Source: Bdellovibrionia bacterium (GTDB lineage: Bacteria; Bdellovibrionota; UBA1018). Taken from it: 31,190 nt of DNA. The stretch spans positions 1-31,190 of the forward strand of contig JBJMMA010000139.1 in NCBI GenBank assembly GCA_045805065.1. The letters run 5' to 3'. The notes beneath the pieces were generated by a model. The model was not told the origin of the DNA. It did no database searches and saw only the letters and a program-made list of their open reading frames with translations. This document shows positions 13,772 to 20,950 of the stretch, in pieces (within the stretch, counting starts at the first letter, position 1; each line of letters opens with the position of its first letter). Both the position numbers and the translations under genes were made by a program.

Positions 13772-15043
13772 ATGACAATTCAAGCGCATGCAGTGACTCA
13801 CCCAGGAACAACTCGCCAATCCAACGAAGATAGTTGGCTCATCGACCCTGAGCTTGAGCTCTGTATCGTGAGTGATGGCAGCACTCACCCGAAAGGCTCC
13901 GCCTTCAGTGATTTGGCCTGTAAAGGAATTCAGAAATTCATCCAAGAGAACAAAAGGATCGTTGAGGCCCATCATAGAACTGGCTCCTCCGCGGACCGCC
14001 AGGCCCTGCTCGATCTGGTGAGGCAAGCCGTTGAAACGGTTTCTGCCTCCCTCTACCTGGAAACGCAGTCCCGACCAGAACTCAAGGGTGTCATCGCAAC
14101 CGCATGTCTTACGCTCTTTTCAAAGGGCTATGCATTTATCGCGCATCTGGGGGACAGTCGCGCTTACTCGGTTCGAGAGGGAGTTTTCCAGCTTCTGACT
14201 CGTGATCACACCTATCTGAACGCGCTCATTGCTGAAGGCAAAACCCTGGAAGAAGCCCGCCGTGTCACCTATGCCGAAAATCTTTCGGCAGCGATGGGAT
14301 ATCAGCCTCATGCGCGCGCAGCTGCGCAAGCCCGCGAGCTTGCGCTCGGTGAGCGAATCGTTCTCTGCACGGACGGTGTTTCAGACTTCTTTGGCCACAC
14401 GAGCTTTCGTGCGGCCGAATGGGCCAAAATCGAAACCGCTCCCCTGGCCGCCGCACTCAAGGATTATGCGCTCAGCAAGAATGCTCGCGATAATCTCACG
14501 GCAATTGCCATCGAATGGCTTCCGACAAAACAAGAGGCACCCAAGCCCACAAAGGATGTGTTGGCCAAGCTCGGTACCGTCAGCGGCATCAGGCTTTTCC
14601 AGCATTTTGGCGAGCGCTCTTTGATGAAGCTTCTCACTCTTTCAGACACGCGAGAGCTTGCTGAGGGTGAAACCCTGATTCGTCGCGGTGAGATCCTTAA
14701 CGAGATGTTCATCGTTCTCAGTGGAGAGCTCTCCATTGATCTTGGGAAAGGCCCGATCAATGCGACCGTGAAAAAGGGCGAAGTCGTGGGTGAGATGTCT
14801 TTGTTTGAGGGCTCACTTCCTTCAGCAACTTTGATCGCAAAGAGCCCCGCAACGGTTCTGACCTTTCATCGAGATCAGCTCTTCCAAGCGATGAAGGAAG
14901 ACGTGGAGTTTGCCGCGCGCCTGGAACTCGGTCTTCTTCAGGCCATTATCCGTCGTTTAAGAGAGCGAACCGAGACGGATGATGAGGCAAAAAGCCTTAA
15001 AAATTACACAGTTGTTTCCATCCTCCCCCCAGAGCAAAACTAA
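13772..15043 (+). CDS. PP2C/Stp1-type Ser/Thr phosphatase fused to a C-terminal cyclic-nucleotide-binding domain
   Basis: NEDS, VSDG, HLGDSRAY, LTRDH, CTDG, RDNLT; then GETLIRRGE...MFIVLSG...GEVVGEMSL. Confidence 0.9.
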   Translation: MTIQAHAVTHPGTTRQSNEDSWLIDPELELCIVSDGSTHPKGSAFSDLACKGIQKFIQENKRIVEAHHRTGSSADRQALLDLVRQAVETVSASLYLETQSRPELKGVIATACLTLFSKGYAFIAHLGDSRAYSVREGVFQLLTRDHTYLNALIAEGKTLEEARRVTYAENLSAAMGYQPHARAAAQARELALGERIVLCTDGVSDFFGHTSFRAAEWAKIETAPLAAALKDYALSKNARDNLTAIAIEWLPTKQEAPKPTKDVLAKLGTVSGIRLFQHFGERSLMKLLTLSDTRELAEGETLIRRGEILNEMFIVLSGELSIDLGKGPINATVKKGEVVGEMSLFEGSLPSATLIAKSPATVLTFHRDQLFQAMKEDVEFAARLELGLLQAIIRRLRERTETDDEAKSLKNYTVVSILPPEQN

Positions 15044-15168
15044 GCTGCTGTACTCGAAATCAACAGTGCCTGATTTAGTCTATTAATTCAGATTGTTAGA
15101 TTGTCTAAATTATGCATATTGCATTGCGTCACAGCTTTGATAATCTGGATACATCGGAGGCAATTCAG

Positions 15169-15240
15169 ATGCGCAGAACGTATCATCAGATTGGCAAAAT
15201 TCTCGAAACCCCGGAAACCGGCCCCCCGCGCACGCGATAG
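15169..15240 (+). CDS. Candidate 23 aa small ORF MRRTYHQIGKILETPETGPPRTR
   Basis: Perfect GGAGG at 15156-15160, 8 nt before the ATG; stop TAG at 15238-15240. Confidence 0.4.
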   Translation: MRRTYHQIGKILETPETGPPRTR

Positions 15241-15581
15241 CGTGAGCTAAACCGCTCCCAGCGAAAGGCGCTGACAAACCGCGACTCTCTCATCCAGAGT
15301 TTCGGGGGAAAAGCCCAAGTAGCACGAGCTCTGCGGTGCTCACGAACTGCCGGATGGATTCTAGGCCAGGATTCACCGCGACAGCTAATTCAATCCAAAA
15401 CAAAATAGTTTTCTTATAAACCCCAAGAAGAGCGGTACGCCGTGAGGCGCGATCCGAGGGCCGTGCGCCCGATCTCAGCTGGGGACATACAATGACGGTC
15501 TCTTTAAGGACCGTTCGAGTGACAGACTCAATAGAGACGGGCCCGGACCAGGCGATACCTGATACCGGGCCCGCATTATTT
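15200..15581 (+). ncRNA. Candidate large structured non-coding RNA of unassigned class
   Basis: At least 8 local hairpins (one with a GUGA GNRA loop) and several long-range 5-7 bp complementarities in a gap lacking any long ORF; G-U wobbles favour the plus strand. Confidence 0.6.
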
Positions 15582-15582
15582 T
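15538..15582. terminator. GC-rich hairpin, possible bidirectional terminator or 3' end of the structured RNA
   Basis: CGGGCCCGG-ac-CAGG-cgata-CCTG-ata-CCGGGCCCG followed by CATTATTTT; abuts the stop of the convergent PilZ gene. Confidence 0.55.
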
Positions 15583-16259
15583 AAAGGACAAGAATTCACG
15601 AACTGAACGCCGACTCCACGAGCAGGACTGCGAGCATCTTCCCCATCACTGATCCAAATGACTTTCGCCCGCGCCTGAAAGGTTTCCTTTACTACCCGCA
15701 AATCGCGGCAAGTCAGGCTGATATGAATTTCATCGCCTACCTGGAGCGAGATGCCGCGATACTCGAGAAAAGCGCCGCCTGCCGAATAATTCCTCATTCG
15801 AGTGGGTATCAAAAGTCCAGTACGCAGCTGCATCATTCGCGCTTCTTCATCTGTGGCAAAGCGAGGGCAAACCTTGGGTTTGAAGTCCTTGCCGGCCGCC
15901 ACTTTTTCAAGAAGGCCCTCAAAATTTCTCACATCAAAAGGTTTCTGAAGTGTCACTGCATTCTGAAGCGAGTGCACGCGGTCATACGATGAGAGCGCAA
16001 CTTGATTGGCCAGGATCAGAATCGGCGCGTTTGAAGTCAGACTAGAAAGCTGCTGGACGATTTCCAACTCATTTTGACCAAGTGCCACGCAATCGAAGAT
16101 GCATGCATCAAAACGGTACTCATCAAATAAGGTCGTTTCTTCCAGATCGGATTTGCCTAAATAGGCGGTGCGATAACATGTGAGAGATTCGATCACCGGC
16201 TCAAGATGAAAACGAGTATCAACGTCGGGACCCCCGACAATAAGAACTGTTTTCCTCAT
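15576..16259 (-). CDS. Degenerate receiver (REC) domain plus PilZ domain protein
   Basis: VLIV, IFDC, PILIL and QKPF receiver-like elements; KVCPRF, NYSAGGAFL, AKVIW and GVGVQF PilZ elements. Confidence 0.85.
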   Translation of the reverse strand: MRKTVLIVGGPDVDTRFHLEPVIESLTCYRTAYLGKSDLEETTLFDEYRFDACIFDCVALGQNELEIVQQLSSLTSNAPILILANQVALSSYDRVHSLQNAVTLQKPFDVRNFEGLLEKVAAGKDFKPKVCPRFATDEEARMMQLRTGLLIPTRMRNYSAGGAFLEYRGISLQVGDEIHISLTCRDLRVVKETFQARAKVIWISDGEDARSPARGVGVQFVNSCPLK

Positions 16260-16333: not shown

Positions 16334-16975
16334 TCAATTCTTGAGCTTTAAAGTTACGCTGCCCGAGGATCCCCATGCCAGTCCTGGAGCCTCTTCGTGC
16401 ACATACACCCAATTCACGAGAGCTTGAGAGTTAGGCGAGAATGGCAAAACCGCATAGGTATCAGGCGAAATTTTCTGAAGCGTTGAGGCCATCGCAAAAT
16501 TCGCTGGCGAAATCCCCTCAAAAGCAGGCTCGGCTTCGATATAAAGTGAAGTCCCTTTGCCGTGCACAGCGCTCTTGAGCTCGAAAGTGGTATGAGTGCT
16601 TCCTATGACGCTTTTACCTTCCAGATTGCTTGCGGAACATGGCGCATCTCCCGGCTTTGCCACAGAGTCGACAACGTTAGCCGTCCAAGGCAGCGTTTGC
16701 GCTACCGTTTCGCCGGTACGAATGTCGCGCGCTTGAATCTGAATTTTACCGAGCTCAAAGCTCACCTGAGTCTTGCAGTAAGAGCTCACCTCCTCGACTT
16801 GCGCAGTTCCGATGATGTCCGTACGAGGAAGAAACTGAACCGACAGTTTGAAGCGACGGTCGTAGCTCACTCCTGAGTAAGAAGTCCCCTTGGATTCAAA
16901 CGTTCCTTCGTACTGCGAAGCATTCGCAATTCCAGTTACGAAAACGATACTGAGAATCGACAAAACTCGCGTCAT
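16334..16975 (-). CDS. Hypothetical secreted beta-rich protein
   Basis: ATG 16975 follows GGAGG; signal peptide MTRVLSILSIVFVTGIANA; two Cys. Confidence 0.8.
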   Translation of the reverse strand: MTRVLSILSIVFVTGIANASQYEGTFESKGTSYSGVSYDRRFKLSVQFLPRTDIIGTAQVEEVSSYCKTQVSFELGKIQIQARDIRTGETVAQTLPWTANVVDSVAKPGDAPCSASNLEGKSVIGSTHTTFELKSAVHGKGTSLYIEAEPAFEGISPANFAMASTLQKISPDTYAVLPFSPNSQALVNWVYVHEEAPGLAWGSSGSVTLKLKN

Positions 16976-17073
16976 AAACGGGCCTCCAAAACCTTTGGCT
17001 AAGCGGCTGATCAGTGAACTATTGCACAATTGAGAGGAACCGACTGATCATTACCCGCCCGATTATGCATTGT

Positions 17074-17251: not shown

Positions 17252-20200
17252 ATGCGCGTTAAACGTCTCGAGATTCAAGGTTTCAAATCGTTCAAGGACA
17301 AGACCATTGTCCATTTCGATCACGGCATCACGGGTATCGTTGGTCCAAACGGTTGCGGTAAATCCAATATCGTCGACGCATTCTTCTGGGTCATGGGCGA
17401 GCAGTCCTACAAGCACATGCGCGGAAGCGGATCGGATGACCTGATCTTCAACGGAAGCACGCGCTACTCTCCGCTCGGCATGGCCGAAGCAACCCTGGTC
17501 ATGGAAACCAGCACTCCTGCAGCCTCGGGCGAAGACGCCGCCGCTGGCGCAACCGTTTCCGATATTCCAGCTCACCTTCTTAAAGGAAAAGAAGTTGCTG
17601 TTACCCGCCGACTTTATCGCGGTGGCGAAGGTGAATACTTCATCAACGGCGTTCCTGCCCGCTTGAAAGACATTCAAGAACTTTTCATGGATACCGGTGT
17701 TGGCGCTAAAGGCTACTCGGTTATCGAACAGGGCCAGATCGGTAAGATCGTTAACGCAAAACCTGAAGAGCGCCGCCTTCTCATTGAAGAAGCCGCAGGT
17801 ATCGCCAAGTACAAGGCTCGTAAGAAAGAATCGCTTCGCAAGATGGAAGCGACTCAAGGTAATCTTTCCCGCTTGAATGACGTCATTCAAGAAATCGAGC
17901 GCAGCCTGGGTTCCTTGGAACGCCAAGCTCAGAAAGCTCGCCAGTTCAAAAAATTCAAAGAAGAGCTCCTCGATAAGGAAATGACCTGGGGTCGCCGCAA
18001 GATTCGCGTCCTTCGTCAGAAGCTCGAAGGCCTGACCAAGCAGAAGGAACTTCTCGAGATCGAACTCGTGGGTCTTCGCGCAGAACTCCAAGTGGCTGAA
18101 AACGCAATCGAAGTCGATCGCGTTGAACAAGTCACCGATTCCAAGATCGCTGAAGAGTGGCAATCCAAGATCCAAATGCTCTCCGATGACCTCACTCACG
18201 AGAAGAGCGCTCTGGATCTTTCCCGCCGCCGTCAAAGCGATTTGAACTCTCAGCTTGATGCCCTCACCCAAGAGAAGGAAGACCTTACCGTCTCTCTCGA
18301 AACCGAGCGTGAGCGCCTGGCTGCTCGTACTGAAGAAGCCAGCCACTCTGACGAAGATTTCACACAAGCTGCTGAACAAGTTCGCGCCATGGACCAGAAG
18401 GTCCGCGCTGTTCGTTCTGAAGCCGACGCTTTGCGCCGCGAACTTGAGAGCACGAAGCGCGATCTCATGAACGGCATCACCAATTCGAGCGCCTTGACCT
18501 CCAAGGCCGCATCGCTTTTGGGCCGCATGGAATCCGCTCAGTCCAAGATTCAACGCCTTGAACAACAAGTCGAAGAACACTCAAGCCGCCTCGAAGGCCA
18601 GCGCGAAGAAGCAACCCGCGCCGCAACCGAGGCTGAAGAAACCCGCGTTCAAATCGAATCGCTCCGTAACGAGCGTCGCGAGCAGCAACAAGCTGTTCAA
18701 AGCCATGAGCAGAACCTGCGTCAGCTTGAGAAGTCCCGCGATGAATCTCTTCGCGGCTTGACTCAACTCAAGTCCCGCCTTCAAAGCTTGGAAGAGCTGA
18801 GCGCAGCTCACGAAGGCTTTGGCGATGGTCCAAAGGCAGCTCTTGATTGGGCACGTGAAAGCGGCAACCAAGGCAAGATCTTGTCCCTGGCCGATGCCCT
18901 TGAAGTGACTCAAGGCTACGAAAGCGCCCTGGAAGGCTGGCTTGAAAACCGCCTCGAGAGCTTGATCTCGGCTGAAGGCTCACTGGCTCTCGATGCTGTT
19001 CAACAAGTATCTGCCGAGAAGGCAGGCCGCGTTGCGATCCAGGTCGCAGGCGCTGACAGCATGGCAGCTTCTGCTGCGGTCGATGCCGCTCAAGCACGCT
19101 CCATTTTGGAAGGCGCTGGCTTTGAAGTTTTGGGCGCACTTTCTGAGTTTGTTGGAATCAACAAGCGCTTGGACGCTGCAGTTCAAGACCGCGCATCCCA
19201 CACGATTGCAAACGTGATCGTGGTTCAAAGCTTTGATTCCATGGCAGCATTTGTCGCAAACGGCGGCCTGGCAAAGCTGGGCGGCTGGTCTGTCGTCAGC
19301 ATGGACGGAAGCGCCATGGGTGCCGACGGAATCCTCCGCGGCGGTCATATGGAAACCGACGGTGGCGCAAGCCTCCTTCGCCGTAAGAACGCGATTTCTG
19401 AACTGAGCGCACAAGTCGGTGCGGCTGAGTCCGAGCATCAGCTCAAGGAAACGGCAGTCACCGAAATCCGCCAGTCTCTCGAAATCGCTCGCGCACGTCT
19501 TGCAACTCTTCAATCTGAGCTTCAAGAGCTTGAAGTTCGCGTGGCAGCTCTTGATCGTGACGTTCACCAGATGAACCGCGCCGTCAAGGACGCCGAGCGC
19601 CAACTCGAATCCTTCTCCAACGAGCGTGAAGAGCTCGAAGCTGAAGCCCGCGCCGCAATCGAAGAGCGCGCTGAGATCGAGGAAGAACTCGCGACTTTCA
19701 ACGCAGCAAAAGCTGAGCTCGATGAAAAGATTGCTGAAGGCGAAGCCAAGGTTTCTGAAAAAGATGCCGAACTTCGCGCACAAGAAGAAGAGCTCAACGC
19801 CCTTCGCGTCAACGAAGCATCCCTTCGTGAGCGCGCAGGAAGCATTCAGCGCGAACTTCAATCCGCTAAGGCTCTGATCACTGATCGTGAGCGCCGCCTG
19901 AACGAAATCAACCGCACGCTCGAGCGCGCCACCCGTGAACGCGAAGAGTTCTCTGGCGGCGAGTCCGGCATGCAAGAGAAGATCGAAGAGCTCACGCTTG
20001 CTTTGGCCAAAGCCAAAGACGAGCTGGCTCAAGTCAAAGATCGCTTGGAGCAAAGCAACGCCAAAGCAAATGCTGCTCTGGAGCGCATCAAGTTCCTCCA
20101 TAAGACGGGCGATCACAAGACCGCTGAAACCAATCAGCTCGCTCTTGAAGTTGAGAAGCTTTCCTCTGAAATCACCCACCTCACGCAAAACCTTGAAGAG

Positions 20201-20950
20201 AAGTACGGCCCAGGCTGCCTTGAGCTTCCTGTGACCTCTCCAATTCAAGAAGAAATGCATGAGACGGTTGTGACGGCTGAAATGTCAGCTGAAGAAGAAA
20301 TCGCTCTCGGCGAAGAAGTCGAGCGCCTCCGTGAACGCATCCGCCGCCTGGGCGAAGTCAACGTCATGGCCATCGAAGAGTTCGAGGAGCTCAAGAAGCG
20401 TTATGACTACCTCCTTGGCGAAAAGAAGGACCTCGAGCATTCGATCGAGAACCTCCAGGAAGCCATCGAGCACATCAACAAGACCTCCGAAGAGCGTTTC
20501 AGAAAGGCTTTCGAAGCGATCGCAGATCGTTTCCAACGCCTCTTCCCGATCATCTTCGGTGGCGGTCAGGCAAAGCTTTCTCTGATCTACCCAGAAGGCT
20601 CCACCGATATCCTCGAAGCTGGCGTGGACATTCTCGCTCAGCCTCCAGGCAAGAAGGTCGTCAACATCGGCCTTCTCTCCGGTGGTGAAAAGGCTCTGAC
20701 CGCTGTGTCGCTGATCTTCGCGATCTTCCTCGTCAAGCCAAGCCCGTTCTGCGTGCTCGACGAAGTCGACGCGCCGCTTGACGATGCGAACATCGGAAAG
20801 TTCAACGCCTTGTTGCGTGAGATGTCGGCGAAGAGCCAGTTCATTCTCATCACCCACAACAAGAAAACCATGGAACTCAACGACACGCTCTATGGCGTCA
20901 CCATGGAAGAGCCAGGCGTCTCGAAGATGGTTTCCATCGAGATGCATTAA
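17252..20950 (+). CDS. smc: Chromosome segregation protein SMC
   Basis: GFKSF, GPNGCGKSN, long coiled coils with a central hinge, LSGGEK, LDEVDAPLD, ITH. Confidence 0.98.
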   Translation: MRVKRLEIQGFKSFKDKTIVHFDHGITGIVGPNGCGKSNIVDAFFWVMGEQSYKHMRGSGSDDLIFNGSTRYSPLGMAEATLVMETSTPAASGEDAAAGATVSDIPAHLLKGKEVAVTRRLYRGGEGEYFINGVPARLKDIQELFMDTGVGAKGYSVIEQGQIGKIVNAKPEERRLLIEEAAGIAKYKARKKESLRKMEATQGNLSRLNDVIQEIERSLGSLERQAQKARQFKKFKEELLDKEMTWGRRKIRVLRQKLEGLTKQKELLEIELVGLRAELQVAENAIEVDRVEQVTDSKIAEEWQSKIQMLSDDLTHEKSALDLSRRRQSDLNSQLDALTQEKEDLTVSLETERERLAARTEEASHSDEDFTQAAEQVRAMDQKVRAVRSEADALRRELESTKRDLMNGITNSSALTSKAASLLGRMESAQSKIQRLEQQVEEHSSRLEGQREEATRAATEAEETRVQIESLRNERREQQQAVQSHEQNLRQLEKSRDESLRGLTQLKSRLQSLEELSAAHEGFGDGPKAALDWARESGNQGKILSLADALEVTQGYESALEGWLENRLESLISAEGSLALDAVQQVSAEKAGRVAIQVAGADSMAASAAVDAAQARSILEGAGFEVLGALSEFVGINKRLDAAVQDRASHTIANVIVVQSFDSMAAFVANGGLAKLGGWSVVSMDGSAMGADGILRGGHMETDGGASLLRRKNAISELSAQVGAAESEHQLKETAVTEIRQSLEIARARLATLQSELQELEVRVAALDRDVHQMNRAVKDAERQLESFSNEREELEAEARAAIEERAEIEEELATFNAAKAELDEKIAEGEAKVSEKDAELRAQEEELNALRVNEASLRERAGSIQRELQSAKALITDRERRLNEINRTLERATREREEFSGGESGMQEKIEELTLALAKAKDELAQVKDRLEQSNAKANAALERIKFLHKTGDHKTAETNQLALEVEKLSSEITHLTQNLEEKYGPGCLELPVTSPIQEEMHETVVTAEMSAEEEIALGEEVERLRERIRRLGEVNVMAIEEFEELKKRYDYLLGEKKDLEHSIENLQEAIEHINKTSEERFRKAFEAIADRFQRLFPIIFGGGQAKLSLIYPEGSTDILEAGVDILAQPPGKKVVNIGLLSGGEKALTAVSLIFAIFLVKPSPFCVLDEVDAPLDDANIGKFNALLREMSAKSQFILITHNKKTMELNDTLYGVTMEEPGVSKMVSIEMH

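Follow-up and report, generated by a model that had tools for sequence, protein, structure and literature searches.

A possible coding-plus-structured RNA gene with a fixed proline-to-helix spacing and a palindromic loop in one order of Bdellovibrionota

Introduction

The stretch of DNA analyzed here (hereafter the window) comprises 31,190 nucleotides (nt) from a Bdellovibrionia bacterium (contig JBJMMA010000139.1 of assembly GCA_045805065.1). The element in question spans about 15119 to 15582 on its + strand, in a 532-nt gap between two convergent genes, a PP2C-cNMP gene (13772–15043, + strand) and a PilZ gene (15576–16259, − strand). An initial reading of this gap from the letters alone (the sequence-only reading) had described it as an orphan, non-coding structured RNA in a signaling neighborhood. 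The structured RNA is real and constitutes a separate RNA gene, but two parts of that description fail: the RNA is not an orphan, and it is not purely non-coding. A covariance model of its shared core finds the element in 69 of the 116 genomes of the window's order, and its 5′ quarter is a conserved short open reading frame (ORF) that looks translated. We tentatively propose that the gap encodes, in a gene of its own, a ≈430-nt RNA of a "coding plus structured" type that is restricted to one order of Bdellovibrionota. Judged from sequence comparison, this may be a stand-alone, dimerizing regulatory RNA, gated by a ribosome that pauses at Pro-Pro against the first helix of the fold, P1; we hold this overall picture with somewhat less than even confidence.

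Results

The short ORF and its distance from P1

Homologs were collected with two covariance models, R1 for the shared core and the broader R2, and 67 distinct sequences (units) were aligned to the model (alignment A4). A short ORF of 19–36 codons (median 28) is present in 66 of the 67 units, the exception being the weakest match, and in 66 of 67 a Shine–Dalgarno match of at least 4 nt precedes the chosen start. In the window, the ORF consists of 23 codons and a TAG (15169–15240, + strand, in the same frame as the ORF 15112–15240) and encodes the peptide MRRTYHQIGKILETPETGPPRTR. The ATG at 15169 is preceded at a distance of 8 nt by the Shine–Dalgarno sequence GGAGG (15156–15160), Gly-Pro-Pro is encoded at 15220–15228 and the stop codon lies at 15238–15240. 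The sequence-only reading was right that the gap has no long ORF, but this short one and its GGAGG had been overlooked.

Gly-Pro-Pro (GPP) is present in all 66 ORF-bearing units. The entropies of the three codons, GGN CCN CCN, are 0, 0, 1.98 / 0, 0, 1.52 / 0, 0, 1.26 bits, with all four bases found at the Gly wobble position, and the E and T codons before Gly also vary mainly at position 3. It is this three-base period of conservation, with variable third positions, that makes the ORF look translated. The codon after the prolines is CGN (Arg) in 39/66 units and AAR (Lys) in 22/66; the window has Gly-Pro-Pro-Arg (GGC CCC CCG CGC, 15220–15231), which, going by the homolog entropies, is the peptide's invariant core and the site where the ribosome presumably pauses. 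An alignment of 33 peptides shows no variation at G, P and P and conservation of at least 90% at E and T, and the peptides of the main family share the motif (S/A)xPY(W/F)xRAxxE(F/W)xETGPP(R/K). The residue before Gly is T in 42 units, H in 6, A in 4, R, I and V in 3 each, P in 2, and S, L and K in 1 each (n = 66). Searched with a profile, 1.84 billion representative proteins yielded 29 matches, of which 28 are family members of 29–67 amino acids, predicted by gene callers in metagenomes; the 29th, a 775-amino-acid repeat protein, is spurious.

The end of the ORF is less constant. The number of residues from GPP to the stop is three in 53 units, two in six, one in six and six in one (n = 66). 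A few members (proteins P0022 and P0027; locus L094) have a sense codon in place of the stop and their frame enters P1, e.g., ...GPPRCIQRE, in one case giving a 67-amino-acid product; since some members read on into P1, the position of the stop is not strictly selected. In another family of the order (L091, L093, L095, L096 and L098), the peptide ends ...GPPR directly before the stop. Two further roles for this region were considered and rejected: pairing of GGAGG with CCUCC of the Pro codons, as U occupies the third position of this motif's first Pro codon in only 33/66 units, and read-through or recoding of the UAG before P1, as the stop position is variable and homologs have early in-frame stops.

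In contrast to the stop, the distance between GPP and the RNA fold does not vary. From the Gly codon to the first pair of P1 there are 21 nt in 66 of 66 units, and the 12 nt between Pro-Pro and P1 have no insertion or deletion in any of them, although their sequence is near random (1.76–1.9 bits per position). A constraint on the peptide only would fix the stop and tolerate 3-nt insertions and deletions; the opposite is seen, the Pro-Pro codons being fixed in place relative to the helix, and this points to the ribosome. When the second Pro codon occupies the P site, P1 starts 15 nt downstream, and ribosome footprints place the edge of the mRNA entry channel at about 15 nt from the P site.

Two prolines with stall-favoring flanks, the pattern of the XPPX pause motifs, are found as G-P-P in 66/66 ORF-bearing units, and an efp gene is present in the window's genome. 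Diprolyl XPPZ motifs slow peptide-bond formation, an effect relieved by EF-P (PMC4176338), and a GPP motif in IleS stalls ribosomes without EF-P (PMC13602936). A milder, EF-P-sensitive pause, rather than a robust arrest, would be expected at the GPP of the element.

The two-hairpin core

The conserved core consists of two adjacent hairpins, in one of which P1 is stacked on P2 across a 3-nt bulge to form a GC-rich coaxial helix, while in the other P3 carries P4. In the window, the 5′ strands of P1 (15241–15247) and P2 (15251–15255) are separated by the bulge UAA (15248–15250) and directly follow the ORF; the 3′ strands of P2 (15333–15337) and P1 (15338–15344) are placed by covariation and the constrained fold. 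The second hairpin (15347–15384) is made up of P3 (15347–15353 with 15376–15384) and P4 (15355–15362 with 15368–15375), capped by the apical loop A-GGCC (15363–15367).

Across the 67 sequences, 90.6% of the cells form standard pairs, compared to 32–44% when the 3′ partners are slid by 1–3 columns. Changes on both sides occur in 22 of the 25 core pairs, and none of 500 column shuffles reached the observed values. P1 is 98.7% paired, with 5/7 pairs changed on both sides, and P2 is 88% paired, with all 5/5 pairs changed; the corresponding counts are 6/7 for P3 and 6/6 for P4. Fitting sequences to a model favors pairing. The helices are nevertheless argued to be real, because the slid controls drop and the pair types are many. 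G-U pairs are frequent (one P3 pair is U-G in 23 sequences and C-G in 30), which identifies the + strand as the RNA strand. The same assignment had been made from the wobble pairs of the window, and the covariation bears it out.

Enforcing the conserved helices in the window costs 2.5 kcal/mol (−150.8, compared to −153.3 kcal/mol for the free minimum free energy (MFE) fold). The free MFE fold instead uses three helices that compete with P1 and P2, all of them put forward in the sequence-only reading: CACGC/GCGTG (15231–15244), AGCAC/GTGCT (15321–15340) and the long-range match ACCGCTC/GAGCGGT. None has comparative support outside the genus, and it is P1 and P2 that covary. The proposed long-range match of CCCCCG (15223–15228) with CGGGGG fares no better, since CCCCCG constitutes two proline codons and its partner lies in a genus-only insertion. 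In general, the pseudoknot and long-range pairs of that reading turned out to be either lineage-specific or in conflict with covarying helices. The long-range pair CCCCA/UGGGG (15421–15425 with 15480–15484) does occur in both the MFE and the constrained fold, as do the predicted local hairpins at 15259–15273, 15284–15300, 15438–15449, 15458–15470, 15494–15515, 15517–15529 and 15538–15573.

The insertion is a multi-hairpin stretch of 77 nt at the tip of P2 (15256–15332). Part of it (15259–15332) folds into three to four extra hairpins on P2, and helices made by the insertion compete with P1 and P2 within 2.5 kcal/mol of the conserved fold. These could represent a lineage-specific conformational switch, or chance.

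The palindromic P4 loop

The P4 loop tetranucleotide (15364–15367 in the window) is GGCC in 53 of the 67 units, GAUC in 10 and CGCG in 4. All are palindromes, and no single-step intermediates are found: positions 2 and 3 change together from GGCC to GAUC, as do positions 1 and 4 from GGCC to CGCG. The loop columns are unpaired in the model and are therefore not biased by it. Nor is the palindrome a by-product of a spacer-free inverted repeat, because the loop has five nt, including one extra base. In a tree built from the other core columns (130 columns, poorly resolved), the best topology has seven loop switches, and the well-supported branches force at least two.

Adjacent loop bases cannot pair within one chain, so a symmetric dimer or higher oligomer is the most economical reading. 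From this pattern of substitution, the RNA probably pairs with a second copy of itself, with the self-complementary GGCC at 15364–15367 as the candidate symmetric kissing contact. A precedent is found in loop L9.3 of OLE RNA, where GGCC/GAUC switching supports a symmetric intermolecular kissing loop seen by cryo-electron microscopy (PMC12286853). Inspection by eye found no second copy of the tetranucleotide consistently at a fixed place in the transcript. A kissing loop had also been suggested in the sequence-only reading, between CATCC and GGATG. That contact is not upheld, as CATCC lies in the genus-only insertion and GGATG (15352–15356) is part of P3/P4; the kissing loop that is probable is a different one.

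Distribution

Plain blastn in relatives matched only 7 of 60 other genomes. The lone full-length match was in the sister species, where 532 of the 551 query bases aligned with 83% identity, and the six further genomes, all of the same family, matched in two short conserved blocks. A covariance model was therefore needed. Since the two blocks adjoin in other genomes, the stretch 15256–15332 is a genus-specific insertion: among the homologs aligned, it is found only in the window and in L002/L045 of the same genus, and other genera have 8–25 nt at this place.

Of the 75 genomes of the family, 55 have the element according to model R1, at 1–4 matches each. Applied to a phylum-wide sample of 151 genomes, R2 found it in 17, each of them from the window's order, and in none of the 125 genomes from the other orders and classes. 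A pattern scan of the genomes of 185,579 species gave 45 loci, 30 of which match the model. These 30 are from metagenome-assembled genomes or isolates labeled Bdellovibrionia, Bdellovibrionales, Bacteriovoracaceae, Bacteriovorax, Oligoflexia or Bdellovibrionota, with one labeled Pseudomonadota. The other 15, from GC-rich Actinomycetota, Pseudomonadota and others, failed the model and were dismissed as chance matches. Locus L034 has two complete tandem copies (1055–1184 and 1501–1633), ≈450 nt apart and upstream of smc, both with a GAUC loop; other genomes have up to four dispersed copies.

Fold strength and layout of the unit

The + strand of 15200–15581 folds with an MFE of −143.2 kcal/mol, compared to a mean of −119.9 kcal/mol for dinucleotide shuffles (z = −4.24), and none of 100 shuffles was as good. 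For the − strand of the same segment, z is −1.97 and five of 100 shuffles were as good. The strong folding proposed in the sequence-only reading, and its view of a stand-alone structured + strand RNA that is not a normal cis riboswitch, thus held up. At gathering thresholds, the whole window was free of Rfam 15 matches, and at E ≤ 10 the segment 14950–15700 had a single chance-level snoRNA match (E = 4.8); on 15 homologous loci there were five sub-threshold matches, none on the core. The proposed absence of a known Rfam family was therefore confirmed. A suggested link to cyclic di-GMP (c-di-GMP) and merRNA was not supported, with no GEMM signal even at E ≤ 10, and for the suggested ribozyme-like character no evidence was found, with no Rfam ribozyme family matching even at E ≤ 10. 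ARAGORN predicted no tRNA or tmRNA in the window, and the 6S RNA of the window's genome is located elsewhere, on contig C143.

The unit starts with a σ70-like promoter read from the sequence, with −35 TTGCAT (15119–15124), a 16-nt spacer and −10 TAATCT (15141–15146). A promoter-like TTGCA-N16-TAnnnT occurs at a conserved distance before the ribosome-binding site in homologs as well. The transcript is predicted to start near 15153; the RNA contigs described below begin at 15163/15164. Downstream of the core, an A/U-rich single-stranded linker (15386–15420) is A/U-rich in essentially all units and often AAAAAUUAAAUA-like. It is followed by domain 2 (15421–15484), in which the CCCCA/UGGGG helix closes over the GNRA hairpin CGCC-GUGA-GGCG (15438–15449) and the GGGC/GCCC hairpin (15458–15470), and by the two further hairpins at 15494–15515 and 15517–15529. 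The unit ends in an intrinsic terminator (15538–15582), a stem of 15538–15546 with 15565–15573 and then AUUAUUUU. A consensus promoter/terminator scanner flagged neither the promoter nor the terminator of the unit; the terminator was missed because its loop exceeds 8 nt. Two nt separate the terminator hairpin from the stop codon (15576–15578) of the convergent PilZ gene; the hairpin may serve both transcripts, although its − strand side has no good U-run.

The closing helix and the GNRA hairpin characterize domain 2 in the main family. A GNRA-capped stem of at least 4 base pairs is present in 31 of 54 domain-2 sequences, where shuffles average 3.7 and never exceed 9, and these hairpins comprise at least eight stem sequence types. 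Many homologs of the same family have a GC-rich hairpin comparable to 15494–15529 before the terminator, and a strong hairpin with a T-run is found 100–250 nt after the core in 35/47 units. In other families, domain 2 differs and is G-rich/C-rich, and the parts shared by all are the ORF and domain 1. In L091, L093, L095, L096 and L098 it is replaced by a GGGAGCC ... CACCCCAACCCCCC module with G-rich and C-rich runs, which looks pseudoknot-like.

Genomic context and expression

Neighbors were taken as the longest flanking ORFs within 1.5 kb at 45 homologous loci. The downstream ORF is smc, on the same strand, in 20 of the 45; smc lies downstream in the sister species (L045) as well, and in members from other families. 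Upstream, a PEP-utilizing enzyme is found in 9/45 and PP2C-cNMP in 2/45. Between the terminator and the start codon of smc there is a conserved promoter-like motif (TTGCC, ≈17 nt, TAGAGT/TACAGT) in L064, L046, L030, L034, L059 and L045. In the window, two − strand genes separate the element from smc (17252–20950), the PilZ gene and a gene at 16334–17029 that has no Pfam match. The sister species lacks the PilZ gene and has smc directly after the element, and from this comparison it looks as if a local insertion or rearrangement has placed the two genes between element and smc. Extra copies of the element adjoin unrelated genes, some of them convergent.

These data alter the view of the neighborhood. 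The 532-nt gap without a long ORF between convergent genes was described correctly, and it is true of the window that no gene lies downstream on the same strand, but smc does follow in the sister species and at 20 of the 45 homologous loci. The conserved neighbor is thus smc and not a signaling gene. Since this usual neighbor also has its own promoter-like motif, the signaling genes are considered incidental. Of the "REC-PilZ" label of the downstream gene, Pfam supports the PilZ part only.

Sequence words of the stretch recur in nine RNA-library runs. When contigs from four soil metatranscriptome studies are placed on 14500–16200, they cover 15163–15525 only, with zero coverage of the flanking genes. 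One study has a contig matching 15163–15395 with one mismatch; two more have contigs identical to 15164–15421 and 15219–15427; and the fourth has contigs of related variants (15218–15368, 15226–15391 and 15376–15525). Neither the contig ends at 15163/4 and 15421/7 nor the parts of the window without coverage give more than weak hints. Record 6 of run X9 matches only 15210–15254, with unlike sequence on both sides, and looks like another family member without the genus insertion, expressed in the same sample. Coverage of the element alone in four studies is as would be expected of a stable, abundant RNA.

Discussion

Proposed mechanism

The arrangement of the unit suggests how it might work. 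A ribosome on the short ORF would slow at Pro-Pro, which belongs to the XPPX motifs that EF-P relieves. During this pause, P1 would be at the mRNA entry channel, with the ribosome parked at the foot of the RNA and the fold unmelted. The dwell time would be set by the proline-translation capacity of the cell (EF-P, Pro-tRNA), and would in turn gate the fold, lifetime or dimerization of the downstream RNA, which would act in trans as a symmetric kissing dimer, either as a regulator or as a ribonucleoprotein scaffold. A more specific version, in which a dimer of ribosome-loaded RNAs serves as a proline-capacity sensor or as a tether that pairs or sequesters ribosomes, with the dimer state of the RNA rather than a downstream cistron as its output, we regard as rather improbable.

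Several observations weigh against the gated dimer. A kissing contact of 4 base pairs is short. The pause may be brief, because Arg precedes Gly in only 3/66 units and Thr in 42/66. As domain 2 is not conserved between families, only the ORF and domain 1 (the core) can carry a shared function. The synteny with smc could mean a role in cis. Hfq (PF17209) had no match in the window's genome (94% complete), which is not evidence of absence but leaves a classical Hfq-dependent mode of action unsupported. The metatranscriptome contigs give no strand, ends or level, and carry-over of DNA is not formally excluded. Finally, the presence of GPP in 66/67 units is partly circular, as the R1 and R2 models and the pattern scan include GGNCCNCC positions. 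Even so, weak matches of 25–40 bits still have GPP, and neither the third-position variation nor the Arg/Lys exchange is built in.

Alternative explanations

The element might be an ordinary small-protein gene, in which the peptide of 19–36 amino acids acts as the effector, with a folded 3′ region that serves only to stabilize or terminate the mRNA. The coding signature is clear, the main family has a longer motif and gene callers predict the ORFs in metagenomes. Only G-P-P is invariant, however, and the N-terminal two thirds of the peptide are wholly different between families, while the tail after GPP varies in length even though the nucleotide spacing from GPP to P1 is fixed. A stabilizer would also need far less than the covarying helices, the near-invariant sequences within them and the palindromic loop, and we consider this explanation unlikely. 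A robust arrest peptide of the RAPP/RGPP class, with a long-lived stall that silences or activates something, is less probable still. The xGPP does lie 1–3 residues from the C-terminus of a tiny ORF, which is where RAPP/RGPP motifs are enriched (PMC12992588), and three of the 66 members have RGPP. In that study, Arg is essential and AGPP and AAPP are non-arresting comparators (PMC12992588), whereas here the residue is mostly Thr (42), with His in 6, Ala in 4 and Arg in 3 of 66. There is, moreover, no co-directional regulated gene before the terminator, and the nascent chain, with only 14–31 residues at the first Pro, has no exported domain that could pull a stall free.

Control of smc in cis is improbable in our view. 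According to this idea, translation of the short ORF would control read-through at the terminator, as in an attenuator. That smc lies downstream in so many loci, in other families as well, and that the order of leader ORF, structure, terminator and gene corresponds to the classical layout, both speak for it. Against this, a promoter-like motif (of the TTGCC...TAGAGT type) lies between terminator and smc, the terminator is ≈300 nt from the ORF and no conserved antiterminator was found. Extra copies (at most four per genome) are located beside unrelated or convergent genes, and the window itself has a convergent PilZ gene and yet retains 83% identity to the sister species over 532/551 bases. Even less can be said for an untranslated stand-alone RNA, a sensor of a c-di-GMP-like ligand or a ribozyme, as the sequence-only reading had favored. 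The fold z-score is strong, transcription looks independent, and PilZ and cNMP-domain genes adjoin in the window, but a three-base periodic ORF with a ribosome-binding site is found in 66/67 units, no Rfam riboswitch or ribozyme matches even at E ≤ 10, PP2C-cNMP is upstream in only 2/45 other loci and the sister species has no PilZ gene. This explanation appears very improbable.

Comparison with known systems

Dual-function small RNAs such as RNAIII/hld, SgrS/SgrT and SR1/SR1P have their own promoter and terminator, a short ORF and a structured RNA. By its predicted layout, the element has this in common with them: a stand-alone transcript with promoter, terminator, short ORF and structured part. 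It has no homology to them, and differs in having Pro-Pro at a fixed distance from a helix and a self-complementary loop. Attenuators of the trp/his type combine several regulatory codons in a row with an antiterminator and a terminator that exclude each other and lie near the leader, and with a promoterless co-directional operon. A leader-peptide attenuator was rejected, as the element has only 2–3 Pro codons, a terminator ≈300 nt off, a promoter-like motif before smc and convergent neighbors. Type I toxin–antitoxin mRNAs encode a hydrophobic membrane peptide and have an antisense RNA partner; this class was also rejected, as inspection shows charged and polar peptides.

Among the RAPP-like arrest peptides, arrest is strongest with RGPP, and the motifs cluster at the C-termini of tiny ORFs (PMC12992588). 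With these peptides (ApdA, ApdP, ApcA and SecM; RAPP/RGPP/RAPG/RAGP; PMC12992588, PMC7897499), the element shares a tiny ORF, a C-terminal x-G/A-P-P and RNA structure after it, and in 65/66 units the GPP is followed by 1–3 residues (six in the remaining one). Unlike them, it lacks the essential Arg in 63/66 units, has no unmasked downstream cistron and no secretion signal, and is followed by a large, conserved RNA fold with a terminator at its end. We did not file it under this class because Arg is found in only 3/66 and Thr in 42/66. Gly-Pro-Pro-Arg/Lys fits the XPPZ pattern as given in the pause-motif studies (PMC4176338, PMC13602936). Compared to the motifs described there, which are part of ordinary proteins for structural reasons, it is the sole invariant part of its peptide and is placed relative to a helix. 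The homo-oligomeric "ornate" RNAs OLE, ROOL and GOLLD have in common with the element a tetranucleotide in a hairpin loop whose switches are confined to palindromes (GGCC/GAUC), which that study takes to support a symmetric intermolecular kissing loop (PMC12286853). The element differs from them in having no Rfam match, a smaller size (≈430 nt, with a core of ≈100 nt), an origin in another phylum and a translated-looking 5′ part.

The merRNA of B. bacteriovorus, which contains a c-di-GMP-I riboswitch, is also a stand-alone structured RNA from the same phylum. The element has no GEMM match, and the 125 genomes searched from beyond the window's order yielded no copy of it. On Bdellovibrio or Bacteriovorax small RNAs, or a short ORF linked to smc, nothing relevant was found in the open-access literature. 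The components of the proposed system thus have precedents in dual-function small RNAs, XPPX pauses and symmetric kissing dimers. To our knowledge, there is none for their combination or for the spacing rule.

Significance

If the proposal is correct, an undescribed, order-wide RNA gene would be added to the predatory Bdellovibrionota. The fixed spacing between GPP and the helix would be an unusually clean natural case in which the position of the ribosome is selected relative to RNA structure, and it would give a handle on regulatory proline pauses beyond the paradigm of the Sec/YidC arrest peptides. The switching of the loop would predict a symmetric dimer of a fairly small RNA, extending RNA-only quaternary structure to an RNA that is translated.

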